Shown here in pieces: positions 15,491-30,182 of a stretch of DNA of 64,000 nucleotides. Each line of letters begins with the position of its first letter. The stretch's first letter is position 1. A program made the position numbers and the translations under genes. Source of the DNA: Candidatus Heimdallarchaeum endolithica (lineage in GTDB: Archaea > Asgardarchaeota > Heimdallarchaeia > Heimdallarchaeales > Heimdallarchaeaceae); contig CP084167.1 of the NCBI GenBank assembly GCA_021513715.1, positions 2,016,001-2,080,000 on the forward strand, written 5' to 3'. Under the pieces are notes generated by a model. It made no database searches. It was not told where the DNA came from and saw nothing but the letters and a program-made list of their open reading frames with translations.

Positions 15491-15697
15491 TTTACATTAT
15501 AAACTAATTTATGATTTACTTTTTTACGTAAAGTTTTTCGCACTCTGTCTTGCAAGAGAGGAAACAAGTAAAAGTTTAATCTCTTGAACTCAACCAAGCC
15601 ATACAATGCTATGAAGGGGTTGAGACAGACATCATACACGAAGCGTGGGAATCATAAAGAAGAAAAGAAAGTTTTTCTTTCTTTTCTTCACTCCACG
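15491..15697 (-). ncRNA. Predicted TnpB omega-RNA (scaffold 15697-15511, guide about 15510-15491)
   Basis: Directly downstream of tnpB; multiple stems (GAAAAGAAAG/CTTTCTTTTC, CACG/CGTG, TCTGTCT/AGACAGA, CTCAACC/GGTTGAG, CAAGAGA/TCTCTTG, ATGATT/AATCAT); conserved in a second copy. Confidence 0.72.
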
Positions 15698-17365
15698 AGA
15701 GACAAAAAAGAAAGAGAGAAAACTAACTCTAACACAAGAGGAGAGAATTAGTCCTTTCCTTTTTTGTCTACTGGGGCTGCAACCAATGGCTGAGTCCTAG
15801 GCAAACAGTGAAATGAGTAGAACTGTATCGCTGACCAGTGAGGTAATCAGTAATAGTTGTTCCTCGAGGACGAAAAAGAGCACCAAGGAACTTAAGAGCG
15901 ATATTTATTGCTCCTGTGAGGTCAGAGTGGAAAGTGTAGTTGCAAGAGGGGCAATGGACTAAACCTCTAACGGGACGGATAACTTTCCTCCCACAACGAG
16001 CACAGTGAGAAGATGTTCCTCTTTCCTCCACAGTTAATATTCGGTGAGGTTCAAAACCTCGAAGTATCAATGCCCGACGGAGAAGAGTAAGAACAAGGTA
16101 AAAATTCCATTGATGAAGTTTCCTGCGAAAATTACGAGTACTTTTACCTTTTCCTTTCTCCTCACGAACATGTTTAGGGTAACCTACAACGACGAAAAGG
16201 TCATACACTTGTGCATAAGTTTCTATCGTATGCACAACTTCACTTATAAATTGGTGAATATAGGCTCGTTTAACGTTTTTATATCTTCTTCGGAGAAGAC
16301 CGAGAAAACGGTAAAGTTGGTGTTTTTTACCCGACTGGTCGTTTAAAGCTGCTTTCCTCTGAAGACGGGAAAGTTTGAGTTTATATCTATGATTGACTCT
16401 ATTCCACTGTTTGGTATACCAGAACTTTATCTCTTTGTTTGTTAATTTCTTTTTAGGGGTCAGTAACACTCCTGCAGCAGGAATGTTTATCCCTAGATCT
16501 ATTCCCAGCACAGCTGGAGGAAGAGAAGAAGAATTATCTTCTTTAGTAGGATAAAAGGAAGAAGGAAGAACTCTTAGTTGGAAATACACCCACCACTCAC
16601 GTGTAGAACGTTTATATCTTAGTTCTAAACTTTTTATTCTTCCTTTCTTTAACTCTTTCTGGTGGAAAGTGCTCATCTCTAAAGGTAACCATAGTTTCTG
16701 GTGGTAAGGGGTGTTTCTTTTCCACGTATCCAACGAGTCTCTTATCCCCACCCACCAACGAGTGAGAGTGTTATTCTTCTCTTTAGGTAAATGAACGAGA
16801 ATGAACCTCTTTGCATTAATTAGTTGTCTTCTCGCTCTCTTTATTGGAGGACGAGTAGGACTGGGTCTATACCCTTGCTCATATAGTTGAACAGCTATAT
16901 CTCTACATTCTTGGAATTCATTGTGAGAACAATAAGGGAACATTTTCTTAAGATCGTGAGGAACAGTCTTTCTTCTCTCTTTTTCTTTAACTTTTGAAGT
17001 CGTTAGCGTCAGTTCATCTAATTTTCCTCTATGTACTCTTATTTTCCCTTTTTTAGTTTTAGCACATATTTTTCTTCTATTGTGGTGTATTATTCTCACA
17101 TACTTTTCTATTATCCTCGTGTCTCTCCCCGTTATTCTCCTTAACCTTTCCTTCTTCCTCGTCGTCAATACCTCCTTCTTTATTCTCACTTTCAAGGTTT
17201 TGACGACGTCCTCCACCATCTTTCTCTTTTCTCCTTCTTTCCTCTTTTTTGTTTCTTCTTCTCTTTTTATTTTACTTTTTTTCCCTATAAAAACCCCTCT
17301 CCTTCCTCTCTTCTCTTTTTCCTCTCCTTCTTCCTCAACAACTGTAAATTACGTAAAAAATAGAA
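15511..17365 (-). mobile_element. tnpB-only (non-autonomous) IS200/IS605- or IS607-related element
   Basis: tnpB without tnpA; right end set by where homology to the second copy stops (...AAATCAT, nt 15511); TTACGTAA palindrome near both ends (about 15524-15531 and 17349-17356); left boundary approximate. Confidence 0.7.
15768..17219 (-). CDS. tnpB: RNA-guided endonuclease TnpB
   Basis: RuvC-I LGIDLGI, RuvC-II VVVGYP with alternative Glu in VEERGTS, zinc finger CARC...CPSC, RuvC-III HSDLTGAINIA. Confidence 0.9.
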   Translation of the reverse strand: MVEDVVKTLKVRIKKEVLTTRKKERLRRITGRDTRIIEKYVRIIHHNRRKICAKTKKGKIRVHRGKLDELTLTTSKVKEKERRKTVPHDLKKMFPYCSHNEFQECRDIAVQLYEQGYRPSPTRPPIKRARRQLINAKRFILVHLPKEKNNTLTRWWVGIRDSLDTWKRNTPYHQKLWLPLEMSTFHQKELKKGRIKSLELRYKRSTREWWVYFQLRVLPSSFYPTKEDNSSSLPPAVLGIDLGINIPAAGVLLTPKKKLTNKEIKFWYTKQWNRVNHRYKLKLSRLQRKAALNDQSGKKHQLYRFLGLLRRRYKNVKRAYIHQFISEVVHTIETYAQVYDLFVVVGYPKHVREEKGKGKSTRNFRRKLHQWNFYLVLTLLRRALILRGFEPHRILTVEERGTSSHCARCGRKVIRPVRGLVHCPSCNYTFHSDLTGAINIALKFLGALFRPRGTTITDYLTGQRYSSTHFTVCLGLSHWLQPQ

Positions 17366-17421
17366 GCATGTTAGCCCAAAAGATAATAAAATTAATATAA
17401 ATTAGAGTACATGTCTAAAAT

Positions 17422-18029: not shown

Positions 18030-18345
18030 GTTCCAGTGGAAATAAAACAATCACCATCTAATAAGGGGTTCTTTACAATAAGAAAGTAACAAATAATAAT
18101 ATACCACCTTTCAATAACGTATATTAGACATCCATAATAAAATTAGGAGTTATAAGCTATATTATTCAAGAATATAACATTTTATAAAATAAATTCAAAC
18201 ATTGCAGTAAAATTGCAGTGGAAATTGCAGTAAATCTGCAGAGAAATTGCAGTAAAAAAGAAATAATGCAAGAATAAAGGTCAAAAGTATAAATGCACAT
18301 CATGATTTATAAAATATCAAAAAAAGTTGCAGTGAAATTGCAGTA
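18030..18345 (+). repeat. ORB core plus tandem mini-ORB-like array (candidate Orc1/Cdc6 binding region)
   Basis: GTTCCAGTGGAAAT at 18030-18043; (T/C)TGCAG units at 18202, 18213, 18225, 18236, 18247, 18327 and 18338 (11-12 nt period), with an AT-rich spacer. Confidence 0.6.
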
Positions 18346-18377
18346 GACAAGAAGTAAAAAATAGATGGTGATTAAAT

Positions 18378-19127
18378 TCAACTATTTAAAGGAAAATAAA
18401 GAGGATAAATTATTTTTGCAAAGTTCTTATAGACTGGAACTCGATAATCGTATTGTTCAATTAATGAAGTTAATCTGATTATCTCAAATTCTGAATACGG
18501 TTTCATTCCTGGAAATTGCTCTGGATCTCCGTAATCTAGGATTTTATAGATTACCTCGTCCAATTCATTTAACTCTAAATAAACTTGAATTAATAAGTGG
18601 ATGTGAGGAGTTAGGAGTTCAACTTTCTTTTCTTCTTCAACTGAATTAACTATTCGCAATATTGAAAAGATCACTGCTCTTCGTGTGATGTAATCTTTTG
18701 AGTAAACCACTTCTTTCAAAGAAGATAAAATGTCAACGTCATCAAGATAACCTATTGCTCTAATAGCTGCATATTGTAAATCATAATCACTTTCTTCAAT
18801 AATTTTTTTGATAAAATCTTTCGAGGAATAGTCTCTTAACTGTCCCAGGATTTCTAATACAGACAGTTTTGTAGCTAAGGATCTCTTTTCAAGTAATTGA
18901 TGAAGCTTTAGTAGGATTTCCTCTTTTTTTTCTGGATAAAGATTAACGAGTTTAATTATAGTCAATGCTGTAGCGTTTCTTACATTCCAATCCTTGTCAC
19001 TTAAAAGTGGCAAAAGATTATTGATGTCCTTGTCTTTCCCCTTCTTTCTTAAAAAAAGAACAGCTTTTAGTCTATCTAAGTCTATTTCGCTTCCTAATTT
19101 TTTTATCATTAACCATCTTTTAAACAT
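18378..19127 (-). CDS. HEAT-repeat protein
   Basis: LSDKDWNVRNATALTI, YDLQYAAIRAIG, DYITRRAVI repeats; overlaps upstream gene by 8 nt. Confidence 0.8.
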   Translation of the reverse strand: MFKRWLMIKKLGSEIDLDRLKAVLFLRKKGKDKDINNLLPLLSDKDWNVRNATALTIIKLVNLYPEKKEEILLKLHQLLEKRSLATKLSVLEILGQLRDYSSKDFIKKIIEESDYDLQYAAIRAIGYLDDVDILSSLKEVVYSKDYITRRAVIFSILRIVNSVEEEKKVELLTPHIHLLIQVYLELNELDEVIYKILDYGDPEQFPGMKPYSEFEIIRLTSLIEQYDYRVPVYKNFAKIIYPLYFPLNS

Positions 19128-20745
19128 AGTACATTCCTTCCTTTATTAGATAACTTATAGCGTTTCTTTGAGGTTGAGAGAGTTTCTTCAAATGTGTATA
19201 GTCTACTCGTTCAACTTCCATTTTCTCTTTTTCTTCATCGAGTTCAGTTTTGTATGCATCCTTTCTTTTCGTTACTTGAACAGCTCTAGTCACAATAGGC
19301 AAGTTATAGGGACTAATTGGTTGTTTTCTACTAATTTTATGGACAGCAAACAAAGTTGCAACGTGCATACCTCTGATTTTTTTGAAAGCGATAATGTCTG
19401 CAAAAGCAGGAAGTATGGTAGCAAAATCTTCACGATATAAAGCCATGTGATTATGCAAAATAACCAATTGATCTAGTCCCACACCTTCGTTATTGATTTC
19501 AAAGACATAAACTTTCTTTTCATCAACAGTTAAATATCCCTTGAATTCTATTTTTGGGTTATCATCCATCAATTGTCCAAAAGTACTGTATTTCTTTCTA
19601 TATATCTTTTTGATGTAATTTTCCAGTTGTGTCCAACCATAAGCATAAACAGACCAAATATCAGTGAAATTGGTAGTTGTTACATGCCAATCCTTTAACA
19701 CTTTTTCTGAATGAGCTCTTTTTTGTTCAGACACCCAATTTTTTAGCTCTTGCCAATCGAAAGTCTCAAGAAATTCTAAATCAGTCCTAAAGCTAAACAG
19801 TTTATCAAACAATCTTTTTTCAATTTCTTCTGACGAAAGGCTCTCCTTTTTCTCTTTTTCTATTTGTTCGCTTATAGCCAATTTTAGTTTATCAACTAAG
19901 AACAAACTTATTTTTCCAACAGGGGGAGCCATAAAGGGTTTAAGTTCTTTAGGAAGATTCTTGGGGACCTGTTTATTTTTATTCAAATAATCTAAATGCA
20001 TCCTTTGAATATAGAATGCAAATCCTTCATCGATTAAATCGTGGAGATGTTTCTTTCTTGATTCTTTTGCTCTTTCCTTTAGAACCTTAATAACCTCAAT
20101 TGAAAAGTTGTTGAATAAAGTGTATTTTCTTGCTTCTTCAGGAGGAGAATAAAAGTCTTGTACTCCAGCCTCAACAAACAATCGTATAACGCTTATTAGA
20201 TCCTGATAGTACTGCCAAGTCCACATCAACTGTTTGTTTGTTTCTTCGTTAATTTTGTAAGCATTATTTTGGAATAATTCTTTCAAAATTACATCTAATT
20301 GGTATATACGAGATAATTGTCTAGGATTATTGGATTCTGTTTTTTCATTCATATAGGCATGAGCAAAAGCATGAACTAGCATTATTCTCAAAGTTAATTT
20401 CTCTTCCTCTGTCAATTCATAACGAGGTGTTGAAAGATAAATTAAAGTAGGTATGCTGTTAAAAACTGTTTCTTTTCCTAACGGCATATATTCATTATTT
20501 CTTGCAGATTGTAGATGAACAACTTCTTCAGCAGTTAAGATTGCTTGGGGAGTTCCTGCACTTTCAATCACCCGATTAACAGAAATATGTAGGTCAGGGT
20601 TAAGAAATATTAGTATTCTATAATTCTCTGGTGTTTCTCCTACCAGTTCTAAGAAATCTTTTCTTGCTTTTAGATACACATTAATGATATCAGCTAATTC
20701 GTCTTTATGCATGGTAAATACTCTCCCGTAGTACTTGCTCTCCAA
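19120..20745 (-). CDS. Hypothetical protein with degenerate gluzincin motifs (probable pseudo-protease)
   Basis: LVHAFAHAY (HExxH with E->A) and downstream DEGFAFY; likely start ATG 20712 overlapping the vWA stop. Confidence 0.6.
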   Translation of the reverse strand: MESKYYGRVFTMHKDELADIINVYLKARKDFLELVGETPENYRILIFLNPDLHISVNRVIESAGTPQAILTAEEVVHLQSARNNEYMPLGKETVFNSIPTLIYLSTPRYELTEEEKLTLRIMLVHAFAHAYMNEKTESNNPRQLSRIYQLDVILKELFQNNAYKINEETNKQLMWTWQYYQDLISVIRLFVEAGVQDFYSPPEEARKYTLFNNFSIEVIKVLKERAKESRKKHLHDLIDEGFAFYIQRMHLDYLNKNKQVPKNLPKELKPFMAPPVGKISLFLVDKLKLAISEQIEKEKKESLSSEEIEKRLFDKLFSFRTDLEFLETFDWQELKNWVSEQKRAHSEKVLKDWHVTTTNFTDIWSVYAYGWTQLENYIKKIYRKKYSTFGQLMDDNPKIEFKGYLTVDEKKVYVFEINNEGVGLDQLVILHNHMALYREDFATILPAFADIIAFKKIRGMHVATLFAVHKISRKQPISPYNLPIVTRAVQVTKRKDAYKTELDEEKEKMEVERVDYTHLKKLSQPQRNAISYLIKEGMYYV

Positions 20746-22090
20746 GTTTGTTAATTTGTGCAGGATCTACTAAAATAGGTTTAGTTATACCTTTCAACAT
20801 TTGATACGTATGACTATAAATTTCCTTTTTTCTCAAAGCTTCTGTACCCATCAAAAAGTAACTTATGTTCCAATTTCTATTAGGATCTGATTTTAAGTGT
20901 TTAAATATTGCATTTAGTTGTAATAAGCATTCTATTGTCTCTGGACTGGTTTTAGTATCGATTGAATTGAAATAATTCTTTAATGAAGAACTAATTTTGT
21001 AATTAAATGGATAAACAGGTATGTTTGGCATACCATCTGTTACAATTGTAAGCTGAACATCGATATTTTTATGTTTATACTGTGCTTTAGCATGCTCAAT
21101 AGCTTTCAAAACACTGCTTACAGTATGTGTCTTTCCTTTTGCTTTAGCATTCAATAAAAGATCTTCCATTTTTGTATCATCATCTACTACAAATGGGTTT
21201 CTAACAATAGGAACTACTGCAAGTTGAAACATATCGTATCTTTTTCTTTTTCTCCTGTTGGCAGTCTTAAAGTAGTAATATAAACTTAGAGCAGTTAACA
21301 GAGCTCCATCTAACCTTGTCATTCCCCCCTCAAACACTTCTTTTTGCATTGATTGGCTCAAATCCACTAAGAAATATACTAAACTTCTTCTATCCTTTTT
21401 CACACGAATAATATCTTCTTGTTTTACGCGCGTTGGAGGAATTGATTGGGAACTAAGCACTGCACTTTTATAGGTTTCTCGAAGTCTAATTGTTCCTCTT
21501 GGGCGTTTTTGAACTTCATCAATAGGAAGAACATTGATTTGCTTTAATAGGTAATGCCCAAGGATGTTACCTAAAACATCCATCACTTCTTCTCGTTTTA
21601 TCCTCTTCTTTCTTCCATATGCATCTGTAATTTCCAAATCAACAATATCTTTAAGAGAGTTCAACTTATCTGCAAGAAGATTAAGATCAACTGTTCCCTC
21701 ATACTTCAGTTCTCGAAGTAAATTCTGGATGTATCGGATAATATCGTCCACTGTTTGAAGTTCATTCTTGTTTACGCGTTCTAGGACATCAGGGAGGACT
21801 CTATCTCCAATAAACTGTAATATTTTTAGTTCATTAATTAGTCTCTCTTCTTCTGCTTCAGTAAGATATGTTGTCATTATTTTTTGGAGTATGTTTTGGA
21901 TTGCAACAGCGTTTTTTGCACCTAAAGATAGTACAGCTCCTTCTCTAGAGCTCCTACCTAGGTGAGGATTACGCCAAAGTTTTAATAATTCAGCAGCACC
22001 TTCAAAGTCTAATATAAACTCAGCATCGCCGTAATTTTGTAGGGGGTCTCTAAACTCTGATTCCGTAAGTAAAAAAATTCGATGGGGCAT
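20705..22090 (-). CDS. von Willebrand factor A domain protein
   Basis: MIDAS DLSQSM...GKT...IVTDGMPN in the C-terminal half; adjacent to AAA+ ATPase. Confidence 0.85.
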   Translation of the reverse strand: MPHRIFLLTESEFRDPLQNYGDAEFILDFEGAAELLKLWRNPHLGRSSREGAVLSLGAKNAVAIQNILQKIMTTYLTEAEEERLINELKILQFIGDRVLPDVLERVNKNELQTVDDIIRYIQNLLRELKYEGTVDLNLLADKLNSLKDIVDLEITDAYGRKKRIKREEVMDVLGNILGHYLLKQINVLPIDEVQKRPRGTIRLRETYKSAVLSSQSIPPTRVKQEDIIRVKKDRRSLVYFLVDLSQSMQKEVFEGGMTRLDGALLTALSLYYYFKTANRRKRKRYDMFQLAVVPIVRNPFVVDDDTKMEDLLLNAKAKGKTHTVSSVLKAIEHAKAQYKHKNIDVQLTIVTDGMPNIPVYPFNYKISSSLKNYFNSIDTKTSPETIECLLQLNAIFKHLKSDPNRNWNISYFLMGTEALRKKEIYSHTYQMLKGITKPILVDPAQINKLGEQVLRESIYHA

Positions 22091-22115
22091 TAGTTTTTGC
22101 CACCTTCACCAAATT

Positions 22116-23669
22116 TTAGATATAGTCTACCTTCAATAGAGCTTCATAACTCGGTTTGAGTTGTTCAACGATTTTAGGTAAAACATCTGATTCATAGTAT
22201 CGTTCTAGTTTTTCGTAATTGATAATCAATTCTGATAATTCTTCGTCACTTAATGCCTTCATCTTTGATATATCTTCACTTATATCTTCTGCTTTAACAG
22301 CCATTCCTGCGCTTTTAAGGTTGGACCTGAGTTTTATTTTTATTTCTTGTAGTGCATCATTTACCATTGCTAAAGGAATATCATAATCGTCTAATACTTT
22401 TCTTACATGTTCTATTGTAACAACATTATATTCTTCATCTTGGAGCTCTCGTTCTCTATTGAGCAACACGCTACCTACAATGTTTGATGTTGTACGTAAA
22501 TCTATATGTGGATTTCTTTGAGGATCATGAATTTCATCTAATCCTGCATAAAAGTCTAATCTTTGAACCCTGCTTTCAGAACGAATTCGTCCTTTTTTAA
22601 GAGCTTCTGGTAAAGAGTTGTTTCCAATGAATGCTAGGAAATCTATGGCTAATTTACTCACATAATCCTTCGAGCTTTTTTCTCGATCATATAATTGAAC
22701 AATACTTGGGTTTGCAGTTATTTTTTGTCTAGAGAGCGTAACTTGTTCTCTGAACATATCCCGAACAATTTGACTCCTACTTTCCACAGATCTTGCTGGC
22801 CAAAGAACTTCTGGAATACGATTGATAATAGGTTGTGATTCTTCTCCAAATACTGTTAAGGGAGCATTAGAAGTGAATATCATTGCTCCATCAATATAAA
22901 CAGGTTCACCTTGAAGATTATACTTTATTGAAGTTGTGTCTTCAAGAAATCCCATCAGTGCTTCAAGCAATGATAGGGGAAGACGCTGAATTTCGTTAAC
23001 TACAATAAAACCTTTACTAAGCACACCTACTTTATGTGATGTTGGAGTATAAGTTGTTGAAGTTTCCTTTCCAAACAGTTCTTCTAGATTCTCTACACCA
23101 GCTAATAGCATATAGAGGCTTTCAGGGTCTGTTCTTGGGTCAAGTTGTGCTTTCCGTACAACAGTTTTTTCCACACCGATTTTCAATAATTTTTCTTTGA
23201 ATTCAGCAGGTTTAATTTTAAGTATACTAGATGTATTATCTAATTTTACATCTCCTTTTCCATCACTCAAAGCATTTTCTATTTTAGTTCGACAGAAAGG
23301 ACAAAGAGATTGTAAGACCCTTATCCCATTAAAAGGATCAACTTCAAATTGCTCTACAACATCAATAATGTATCCTGCATCCTCAAGGAAAGGACAGGAA
23401 TCAATATGATACTTATGATCATTAATTTCTCGAACAATGTGATCTAGGAGAATACGACTGAATAGCGTTTTAGCTTCTCCTGTAGGACCTGTAATAAGCA
23501 CTTTTCCTCCGACAGCAAGCTTATCCATGACTAAATTCTTTGCGTCTTCATTTCCTCTAACACTTGGATCATTGATTACACGTTTTCTAAATTCGTTATT
23601 CATTAATATATGCCTAACTGAATACCCTTTATAGCCAGTTTTTATTAATTCCTCAACTGTATTGACCAT
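22116..23669 (-). CDS. AAA+ ATPase, ChlI/MoxR (helix-2 insert) clade
   Basis: Walker A GPTGEAKT, CPF...CPFC insert, Walker B IVVNEIQR, FTSN sensor-1, IINR arginine finger; N-terminal TVEELIKTGY..SVR resembles bacterial Mg-chelatase-like ATPases paired with vWA proteins. Confidence 0.8.
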   Translation of the reverse strand: MVNTVEELIKTGYKGYSVRHILMNNEFRKRVINDPSVRGNEDAKNLVMDKLAVGGKVLITGPTGEAKTLFSRILLDHIVREINDHKYHIDSCPFLEDAGYIIDVVEQFEVDPFNGIRVLQSLCPFCRTKIENALSDGKGDVKLDNTSSILKIKPAEFKEKLLKIGVEKTVVRKAQLDPRTDPESLYMLLAGVENLEELFGKETSTTYTPTSHKVGVLSKGFIVVNEIQRLPLSLLEALMGFLEDTTSIKYNLQGEPVYIDGAMIFTSNAPLTVFGEESQPIINRIPEVLWPARSVESRSQIVRDMFREQVTLSRQKITANPSIVQLYDREKSSKDYVSKLAIDFLAFIGNNSLPEALKKGRIRSESRVQRLDFYAGLDEIHDPQRNPHIDLRTTSNIVGSVLLNRERELQDEEYNVVTIEHVRKVLDDYDIPLAMVNDALQEIKIKLRSNLKSAGMAVKAEDISEDISKMKALSDEELSELIINYEKLERYYESDVLPKIVEQLKPSYEALLKVDYI

Positions 23670-23705
23670 TTAAATGCACCATTTATCATTCTTTCAAGTA
23701 AAGAT

Positions 23706-24305
23706 TTAAGATTCATTATCATTTTTCTTATCTACAATAACAATCTTTTTTTGAGAAAGTTTAGTTTTAAGACTTTCTTTTCTTTCCCAATCTAATGTCC
23801 AACCCATCCATATCGCTTCCTTAAGCCAGTTTAATGCGCTTAATAAGTCGTTAACGTCTCCAACCTCAAATAGCTTCCAAACCCTATCTGTTAATCTAAC
23901 AAGCGACAGATTCTCTATCAGTTCTCCACTTGTTAAAGAGCCTTGTAAATTACTATTATAAGCACAAATTGCTATTGGTTTTTCTCTTAGATCCTCGTTC
24001 CAAATGATTCTTTCCCAAAAGAAAGCTCGCTCATGCTTAATCATATCTTCTTTTGTAGCATCGATAAGATATAAAATCCCCTCAAATGTTTCGAAAAGTT
24101 TAGGCTTAAACTTAAACTTGTCTTCAACTGGAAGCTTAGAAAGATAGTCATCTAAAAGAAAATCATCAATTGAGATTTCTGCATTTAACAGTTTTACTCT
24201 ATTTCTAGCTGCTGGAGTATCATTTCCCATAATCAATATTGAAACTTCTGGCTTTCCCAATCGTCTTCGAATTGAGAGCAATAGTTGATTTATTTTGTTG
24301 GACAT
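23706..24305 (-). CDS. Arf-family small GTPase-like protein with degenerate nucleotide-binding motifs
   Basis: Arf scaffold retained (SILIMG, EGILYLID, LREKPIAICA, ELIENLSL..LTDRVWKLF, DLLSALNWL); G1 is GNDTPAAR, no DxxGQ, G4 is YNSN. Confidence 0.7.
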   Translation of the reverse strand: MSNKINQLLLSIRRRLGKPEVSILIMGNDTPAARNRVKLLNAEISIDDFLLDDYLSKLPVEDKFKFKPKLFETFEGILYLIDATKEDMIKHERAFFWERIIWNEDLREKPIAICAYNSNLQGSLTSGELIENLSLVRLTDRVWKLFEVGDVNDLLSALNWLKEAIWMGWTLDWERKESLKTKLSQKKIVIVDKKNDNES

Positions 24306-29243: not shown

Positions 29244-30182
29244 TCACACTGTAATAACCTTAACTTTATCTTGGTCTTTGATGTTTAACACATTTAGTAT
29301 TCCTTTTATGAGTTCATCTTTTGTTCTAGCTTTTTTCTTTTCAAGATATTCATATACTTGTTCAATGTATCTTTGTGCCTCTACATGAGACTCTTCTGGA
29401 TTTATGATCATGGTTATTATCACGTCACTTCTTTCGTGGCATACAAGTTTTATATTTTCGTTTGAGGTAGTCGATAATTTTTCTTCTTTAAGTGTAGCTG
29501 ATTCATATTTAAATATTTGAGCTAATAATTCTCTGATTTGTGATATTTGCTGCGATAATCCTTCAAAATCTAAGAATAATTGTACCCTTCCGAGTGTTGT
29601 ACTGATTATCAAGCCTTTTGGGTGGACTATCTTTTCTTGTCCTATTTGTTTTAGTTTATTTGTAAACCAATTTAAAGCATCATTTATTCCTTCTCCTGTT
29701 TTGTTACTGGTCTTAAATATCTGGAAACTGATCTTTGAGTAGTTACTCAGTCTTGGAAGTTCGAGCGTTTCAATGATTTCTTCTATTGACATACATTCTA
29801 AATCTGCTTTATTGGCAAAAAAGGCAACTACTATTCTGTCCTCAATTTCAATATTTTTAATAAGGTACCAGAACCACTCCTTACCTTCGGCAGTTTTTTC
29901 TTTATCAGAAGCGTCAAAGACAAAAATAATACCATAGCTATTTGATGCGTAATTCACCCAAAACTGTTTACGATAAACAAATTGTCCCCCAACATCAAAT
30001 ATCTTGAATAAGGTGTCGCCCACTTTAAAAGATTCAAAACTTACTCCTAGTGTGGGAGTAGTATCTTCCACAAAGGAGCCTGTTTTTAATCTTTCAACTA
30101 AAGTGGTTTTTCCAGCATTTTCTAACCCTAGTATAGTTACTGGTACTGATTCTTTTCCTACCTTTAGTACTTTATCATTCAC
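29244..30182 (-). CDS. Arf-family small GTPase with C-terminal longin/roadblock-like domain
   Basis: G1 GLENAGKTT, G2 PTLG, G3 DVGGQ, G4 NKAD; about 130-aa C-terminal extension with beta-beta-alpha-beta-beta-beta-alpha pattern. Confidence 0.85.
   Translation of the reverse strand: MNDKVLKVGKESVPVTILGLENAGKTTLVERLKTGSFVEDTTPTLGVSFESFKVGDTLFKIFDVGGQFVYRKQFWVNYASNSYGIIFVFDASDKEKTAEGKEWFWYLIKNIEIEDRIVVAFFANKADLECMSIEEIIETLELPRLSNYSKISFQIFKTSNKTGEGINDALNWFTNKLKQIGQEKIVHPKGLIISTTLGRVQLFLDFEGLSQQISQIRELLAQIFKYESATLKEEKLSTTSNENIKLVCHERSDVIITMIINPEESHVEAQRYIEQVYEYLEKKKARTKDELIKGILNVLNIKDQDKVKVITV

Follow-up and report, generated by a model that had tools for sequence, protein, structure and literature searches.

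The operon described here lies in a window of 64,000 nucleotides (nt) from the Asgard archaeon Candidatus Heimdallarchaeum endolithica (CP084167.1, forward-strand positions 2,016,001–2,080,000; coordinates below are window positions unless another locus is named). Among known organisms, Asgard archaea are the nearest relatives of eukaryotes. The closed 3.33 Mb genome carries one copy of each of five genes, hereafter genes 1–5, all on the minus strand. Gene 1 (23706–24305, 199 amino acids (aa)) encodes a pseudo-GTPase derived from Arf/ArfR proteins (Pfam Arf, E = 9e-7), gene 2 (22116–23669, 517 aa) a clade-7 AAA+ ATPase nearest to PrkA/YeaG, gene 3 (20705–22090, 461 aa) a von Willebrand factor A (vWA) protein (Pfam VWA_2, E = 0.008), gene 4 (19120–20712, 530 aa) a SpoVR-like protein with a zincin fold and gene 5 (18378–19127, 249 aa) a HEAT-repeat protein (Pfam HEAT_2, E = 1e-12). 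The start of gene 4 is taken as the ATG at 20712; the TTG at 20745 chosen by the open reading frame (ORF) finder gives 541 aa. Genes 1 and 2 are separated by 36 nt and genes 2 and 3 by 25 nt, and the last two junctions are 8-nt start/stop overlaps (20705–20712 between genes 3 and 4, 19120–19127 between genes 4 and 5). This co-oriented layout, which an earlier note on the same DNA reported and took to suggest translational coupling, is borne out by direct reading, and the view of the genes as a coupled operon is supported. The ATPase is 98% identical to its counterpart in Ca. Heimdallarchaeum aukensis. Scans with NCBIfam (genes 1–4) and PADLOC returned nothing meaningful and therefore gave no sign of a described defence system. 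A promoter and terminator scan, which covers bacterial-type consensus sequences and not archaeal promoters, returned 36 matches against 27 ± 4.5 expected, near chance.

Conservation and distribution

Genes 2–5 occur together at 41 loci, in invariant order, and at 35 of these gene 1 also stands in front, in order, so that the arrangement is more than chance. At the remaining six loci, gene 1 is not nearby (five loci) or lies inverted 1.8 kb away (one locus). The earlier note had treated the five genes as one unit whose order should recur in other Asgard genomes; the order does recur, gene 1 sometimes lying outside the operon.

Among 400 Asgard genomes, the ATPase is present in 55, all from Heimdallarchaeia and none from outside the class, and gene 3 shows the same pattern of occurrence. 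Weak vWA matches in other Asgard classes are ChlI/ChlD fusions and not gene 3 orthologues. By family, the ATPase is found in 29/30 genomes of the organism's own family, in 16/16 of three other families of the order, in 9/12 of family f7 and in 0/22 of family f5; the labels used at NCBI make it probable that f4 corresponds to Kariarchaeaceae, f7 to Gerdarchaeales and f5 to Hodarchaeales. More distant ATPase orthologues (36–43%) carry the NCBI labels Hodarchaeales, Hermodarchaeota or Promethearchaeota. The pseudo-Arf occurs once per genome in 55 of the 83 genomes of Heimdallarchaeia (by family 29/30, 1/1, 1/3 with one weak match, 12/12, 11/12 in f7 and 0/22 in f5). It is found in nearly the same genomes as the core, even where it no longer lies in the operon, which suggests a functional as well as a positional link among genomes that are related and hence not independent. 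In family f7, the HEAT gene is followed, on its own strand, by a conserved gene of 133–136 aa (L026:6550–6960, L045–L049).

The ATPase, vWA and SpoVR-like core

The module formed by PrkA/YeaG (PF08298 and PF06798), YeaH/YhbH (DUF444) and SpoVR/YcgB (PF04293) is found in bacteria, haloarchaea and phages. Known pairings of a MoxR ATPase with a vWA protein include RavA–ViaA, CbbQ–CbbO and NorQ–NorD. Gene 2 has the variant Walker motifs pointed out in the earlier note (GPTGEAKT; IVVNE), and across 20 orthologues both GPTGEAKT (Walker A) and VVNE (Walker B) vary hardly at all. K67 of Walker A, N225/E226 of Walker B, where asparagine replaces aspartate, N268 of sensor 1, the presumed arginine finger R284 and the presumed sensor-2 R392 are invariant; from this conservation, gene 2 probably encodes an active ATPase. 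A Cys/His insert follows Walker A. Both core and lid of the structural model can be aligned with RavA, a MoxR protein, BchI and MCM, that is, with clade 7. No PDB match to gene 2 or gene 4 reached E ≤ 0.001 in Foldseek, and searching PDB sequences with the AAA profile returned nothing.

The gene 2 profile was compared with those of four reference families: PrkA (annotated plasmid and E. coli genes and phage loci), Rv0958-like proteins, ChlI and MoxR. The ChlI and MoxR sets are small, and the Rv0958-like set was gathered by a sequence motif and is taken as a stand-in for proteins of the Rv0958/Rv0959 type. The best match is to PrkA (hhalign probability 96–98%, E = 2e-9 to 4e-14), followed by the Rv0958-like set (83–87%, E = 4e-6) and ChlI (67–83%, E = 5e-5 to 9e-6), with MoxR, from its small reference set, the lowest (51–74%, E = 1e-4 to 3e-5). 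PrkA is also the top match when the P-loop/insert and the Walker B/second region of homology (SRH) segments are scored separately, and it is the only outside family matched by the gene 2 profile. A tblastn search of plasmids places four of five gene 2 matches in the P-loop/insert region, the best-annotated of them being PrkA. The ChlI-type assignment made in the earlier note thus survives as a clade-7 fold with a vWA partner, and yields to PrkA/YeaG as the closer relative by profile. The C-terminal 220 residues match none of the four families, and residues 295–517 reach a probability of 0.15% against the PrkA profile; the PrkA tail is therefore absent, in keeping with the lack of a Pfam match to PF06798, the PrkA C-terminal domain, in gene 2. 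Among 20 members of the gene 2 family, no match to PF08298 (AAA_PrkA) is listed. In trees, the gene 2 family and two distant metagenomic members form their own clade (99/98) outside the PrkA clade (100/99), with MoxR and ChlI on branches separate from gene 2. A full-length distant member of the family, 572 aa long and encoded on a 2-kb contig (L065, P0050), is basal in the family tree.

Gene 3 combines a helical N-terminal region without profile match and a vWA domain whose metal-ion-dependent adhesion site (MIDAS), described as intact in the earlier note, has five residues (D243/S245/S247, T321 and D352) that are invariant in 17 orthologues. Its hhalign probabilities are 97% against ChlD, 93–96% against the Rv0959-like set and 86–92% against YeaH; its Atlas features are those of an Rv0959-type vWA protein, and DUF444 has no Pfam match in it.

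Gene 4 adopts a gluzincin fold that resembles SpoVR (template modelling (TM) score 0.54 over residues 3–523), and SpoVR proteins are its only Atlas structural matches, at full length. Five SpoVR motifs are in register with gene 4, including HxxxH...E-G, and the profile score of 34.6 against SpoVR was reached by none of 40 block shuffles (maximum 34.0). As fold and motifs agree and PF04293 (SpoVR) has no Pfam match in gene 4, the likeness is one of fold and not of a sequence cut-off. The HAFAH motif (20373–20359) lacks the catalytic glutamate of HExxH, which is missing in all 24 aligned rows; canonical SpoVR likewise lacks this glutamate and keeps the same ligands. From their positions, H114, H118 and E229 are possible zinc ligands. 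The H..H..E set is kept in 14/22 orthologues and in a distant copy (L051), and one or more ligands are missing in the other 8/22 (family f4 and the f2 genome), where the operon is intact. The pseudo-gluzincin of the earlier note therefore holds as to fold and missing glutamate and not as to the histidine pair, which is not kept in all lineages; its closest known counterpart, SpoVR, had been missed. With a SpoVR-like, Glu-less gene 4, the three-gene core matches the PrkA–YeaH–SpoVR layout. No canonical SpoVR was found in any genome carrying the operon. One Asgard bin holds canonical PrkA–YeaH–SpoVR and SpoVR genes on short contigs beside PhoH-like genes (L077, G079:C578; L062), one SpoVR gene being split by a probable intein; these look phage- or contaminant-derived.

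We consider it somewhat better than an even chance that genes 2–4 are a deeply diverged sister lineage of PrkA(YeaG)–YeaH–SpoVR(YcgB) and work as an AAA+ machine of that type. This reading is favoured because the gene order AAA+, vWA, SpoVR is that of reference bacterial operons, the ATPase and MIDAS are intact and gene 4 has the SpoVR fold. The two systems also share a clade-7 ATPase, a Cys-containing insert after Walker A and a zincin fold that lacks the glutamate and has its ligands at the same positions. They differ in that the operon ATPase has no kinase-like C-terminal domain, carries NE in Walker B and stands in a separate clade beyond the PrkA crown, in the loss of zinc ligands in one family and in the additional HEAT and pseudo-Arf genes. 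Since two defining features, a place in the PF08298/PrkA clade and PF06798, are not found, the operon would work like PrkA–YeaH–SpoVR and not be a member of it.

Several observations weigh against this kinship. None of the operon proteins has a Pfam match to PrkA, DUF444 or SpoVR, the gene 4–SpoVR profile match taken alone is weak (probability 13%) and gene 3 is nearer to ChlD/Rv0959 than to YeaH. The sister grouping of the gene 2 clade with PrkA is weak (91/43) and is one in which long branches meet, the approximately unbiased (AU) test does not reject groupings with the Rv0958-like set (p = 0.11) or ChlI (p = 0.11), the N-terminus and Walker variants of gene 2 look Rv0958-like and its Atlas features point to ChlI/AAA_5 clusters. 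In some distant genomes (L056, 7365–9551; L284; L285) the ATPase gene stands alone, near SRP54 and preceded by a 192-aa gene whose product looks like a winged-helix protein, with the partner genes not in the locus. The model system itself is also contested, as published work disagrees on whether PrkA by itself has protease and kinase activity (PMC9512850 vs PMC13001217).

Beyond sequence, fold and gene order, the mechanism that follows is inference. The AAA+ protein would form a ring and the vWA protein would grip an acidic residue of a client through the MIDAS metal, so that ATP hydrolysis, by analogy with other clade-7 AAA+/vWA pairs, could pull on the client and remodel or unfold it; gene 4 would serve as a non-catalytic peptide-binding or scaffold subunit. 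By analogy with YeaG/PrkA, the machine would most likely serve to turn over or remodel proteins when cells starve or grow slowly. YeaG, YeaH and YcgB are cofit, acting as a group genetically (10.1101/072470), and E. coli needs YeaG for the bulk proteolysis that starvation induces (PMC13684143).

An ATP-dependent protease, in which the AAA+/vWA pair would hand unfolded substrates on to gene 4 as an atypical zinc peptidase (H114/H118/E229, with a general base borrowed from elsewhere), seems unlikely. The gluzincin fold, the retention of H..H..E in most orthologues, in the L051 copy and in canonical SpoVR, the YeaG-driven proteolysis of starved E. coli and the report of B. subtilis PrkA as a protease (PMC9512850) would all suit such an activity, whereas the HxxxH motif lacks its catalytic glutamate, ligands are lost in 8/22 orthologues despite an intact, conserved operon and pure B. 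anthracis PrkA shows no protease activity (PMC13001217).

The scores of gene 3 raise a further alternative, which we consider slightly less likely still: a chelatase or cofactor-insertion chaperone like Rv0958/Rv0959 or ChlI/ChlD, with gene 4 as a ChlH/CobN-like acceptor or client and the PrkA likeness convergent or ancestral. Besides the vWA matches to ChlD and the Rv0959-like set and the two groupings that the AU test does not reject, it draws on the N-terminal motif, AKT-type Walker A and NE Walker B that the ATPase shares with the Rv0958-like set, on its similar length and on a similar pre-MIDAS segment in the vWA protein, as seen in that motif-defined set. The operon differs from Rv0958/Rv0959-like pairs, however, in its separate ATPase clade, in ATPase core segments that score higher against PrkA and in its SpoVR-like gene, a neighbour found at 0 of 80 Rv0958-like loci. 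With ChlI/ChlD and the MoxR/vWA pairs it shares the clade-7 fold with a MIDAS partner and the general working principle, but the ATPase profile matches are weaker, gene 4 is SpoVR-like and not ChlH/CobN-like, and near the operon there is no ChlH/CobN or known MoxR client and no conserved tetrapyrrole or metal-cofactor gene.

The Arf-derived and HEAT-repeat partners

The earlier note described gene 1 as an Arf-like protein without G1, G3 and G4 and with an N-terminal amphipathic helix, and both points hold up. Its family profile matches Arl3/Arl1 (E = 2e-11 to 4e-11) as well as Arf and Asgard ArfR structures, and the best 60 of 93 matches are all Arf/Arl/ArfR, in line with the Pfam Arf match. 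G1 and G3 are missing by pattern in 22/22 orthologues and the G4 position is degenerate in aligned rows. Aligned with the genome's intact ArfR proteins, gene 1 has a shortened switch I/interswitch region and a similar N-terminus; helix 3 bears a conserved, family-specific aromatic patch. With its G boxes gone, the protein is predicted to be GTP-blind, unable to switch and thus no nucleotide-controlled toggle. The first helix, which may bind membranes, is amphipathic and cationic in 11/22 orthologues (very short in family f7) and in 20/25 of gene 5. The background share among ORFs of the genome is 17%, and genes 2, 3 and 4 give 4/20, 1/17 and 2/22; these counts carry uncertain start codons and related rows. 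The Arf-type C-terminal half, the amphipathic helix and the Heimdallarchaeial distribution are shared with the Asgard ArfR/AArf GTPases, from which gene 1 differs in its lost G boxes, its shortened switch region and its tie to an AAA+ operon. The papers describing those GTPases (10.1101/2024.02.28.582541; PMC11914678) mention no such operon, and our literature search found no paper on the operon, on pseudoGTPases together with Asgard, or on SpoVR together with zincin, so the combination, which the earlier note did not recognise as a described system, has no description in the literature searched. A predicted complex of genes 1, 4 and 5, with gene 5 set as the partner, scored 0.75, against 0.70 in a control with gene 4 replaced, and is not used as evidence either way.

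Gene 5 consists of HEAT_2/PBS-lyase-type repeats of prokaryotic kind, and its best PDB matches are alphaRep proteins. The HEAT solenoid proposed earlier is therefore present, as a prokaryote-type protein and not specifically a eukaryotic coat solenoid. At one divergent locus (L054, 3894–9530, GCA_046759345.1), the ATPase gene is transcribed divergently from the vWA, gene-4-like and 391-aa HEAT genes, with no pseudo-Arf nearby; the gene-4-like protein has lost its zinc ligands, and the HEAT gene, in the same position, encodes a hydrophobic N-terminal stretch that may span the membrane. A profile search of 1.8 billion representatives yielded a distant ATPase (P0043) on a contig with 57% GC and 16 co-oriented genes without Pfam matches (L286, 101–17906, Logan SRR26786796_97554), which turns up in 12 contigs from related samples. 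The contig carries homologues of genes 2, 3 and 4 (E = 4e-20, 2e-25 and 6e-9, values that hold for the small set searched) with their order unchanged, and around this trio stand 12 helical-repeat-like genes that are all homologous to one another. Searches for viral relatives of P0043 and for relatives of its SpoVR-like neighbour found none. This distant copy suggests that the trio predates the form it takes in Heimdallarchaeia and has been repeatedly paired with solenoids; we infer that the Arf is a lineage-specific addition to it.

Within the PrkA-type machine, the HEAT solenoid would act as a specificity adaptor and the pseudo-Arf as a nucleotide-independent accessory subunit or membrane anchor, and the amphipathic helices of both may hold the machine at the membrane. 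A fuller version, that an Arf-family protein was recruited as a nucleotide-independent membrane anchor, bound to the HEAT solenoid and placing a PrkA-type unfolding machine at the membrane, possibly for starvation-driven turnover of membrane-associated proteins, is tentative and rather improbable. The stronger form put forward in the earlier note, a proto-trafficking machine in which Arf and HEAT solenoid make a coat-like membrane adaptor that the AAA+/vWA pair remodels or disassembles, is the most doubtful: the true Arf ancestry of gene 1, the cationic amphipathic N-termini of genes 1 and 5 in excess of background, the likely membrane anchor of one lineage's HEAT protein and the confinement to Heimdallarchaeia speak for it, but gene 1 cannot switch, and the HEAT protein is of prokaryotic type and short. 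The core, moreover, is a module of prokaryotes, seen at L054 and L286 with no Arf in the vicinity; the operon was not found in the 22 genomes of f5, and searches for eukaryotic orthologues of the core genes found none.

If the PrkA-type reading with its membrane anchor is true, the operon encodes an Arf–solenoid–AAA+ assembly in the prokaryotes nearest to eukaryotes. In several Heimdallarchaeial families it is near-universal, single-copy and unannotated, and in it a prokaryote appears to have put an Arf fold to new use as an accessory that does not switch. It also bears on the long-open question of the biochemical role of PrkA–YeaH–SpoVR. That the ATPase and MIDAS are kept while the 'kinase' tail is dropped, and the zinc ligands in one family, suggests that ATP-driven pulling is the conserved core, and the recurring pairing with helical solenoids points to the seat of specificity. 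The present analysis adds a comparison with four families that comes out as a mosaic, zinc ligands lost in particular lineages, a pseudo-Arf that co-occurs with the core even when unlinked, HEAT proteins that are amphipathic or anchored, the copy set in an array of solenoid genes and the connection to the YeaG result of 2026.

Neighbouring features

The single-copy non-coding stretch just downstream of gene 5 (18049–18373) is bounded by a perfect inverted repeat of 12 nt and holds a 14-nt direct repeat four times. H. aukensis has this stretch too; it is a possible regulatory site or terminator region. Beyond it, a 1.9-kb element (15500–17400) contains a TnpB-like gene (15768–17219) and has about 12 near-full-length copies in the genome; it is missing from the same site in H. 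aukensis and is therefore a recent insertion. On the other side, 5 kb upstream of the operon, an intact Arf-like GTPase with an additional C-terminal domain is encoded at 29244–30182, a proximity that is not kept in other genera.

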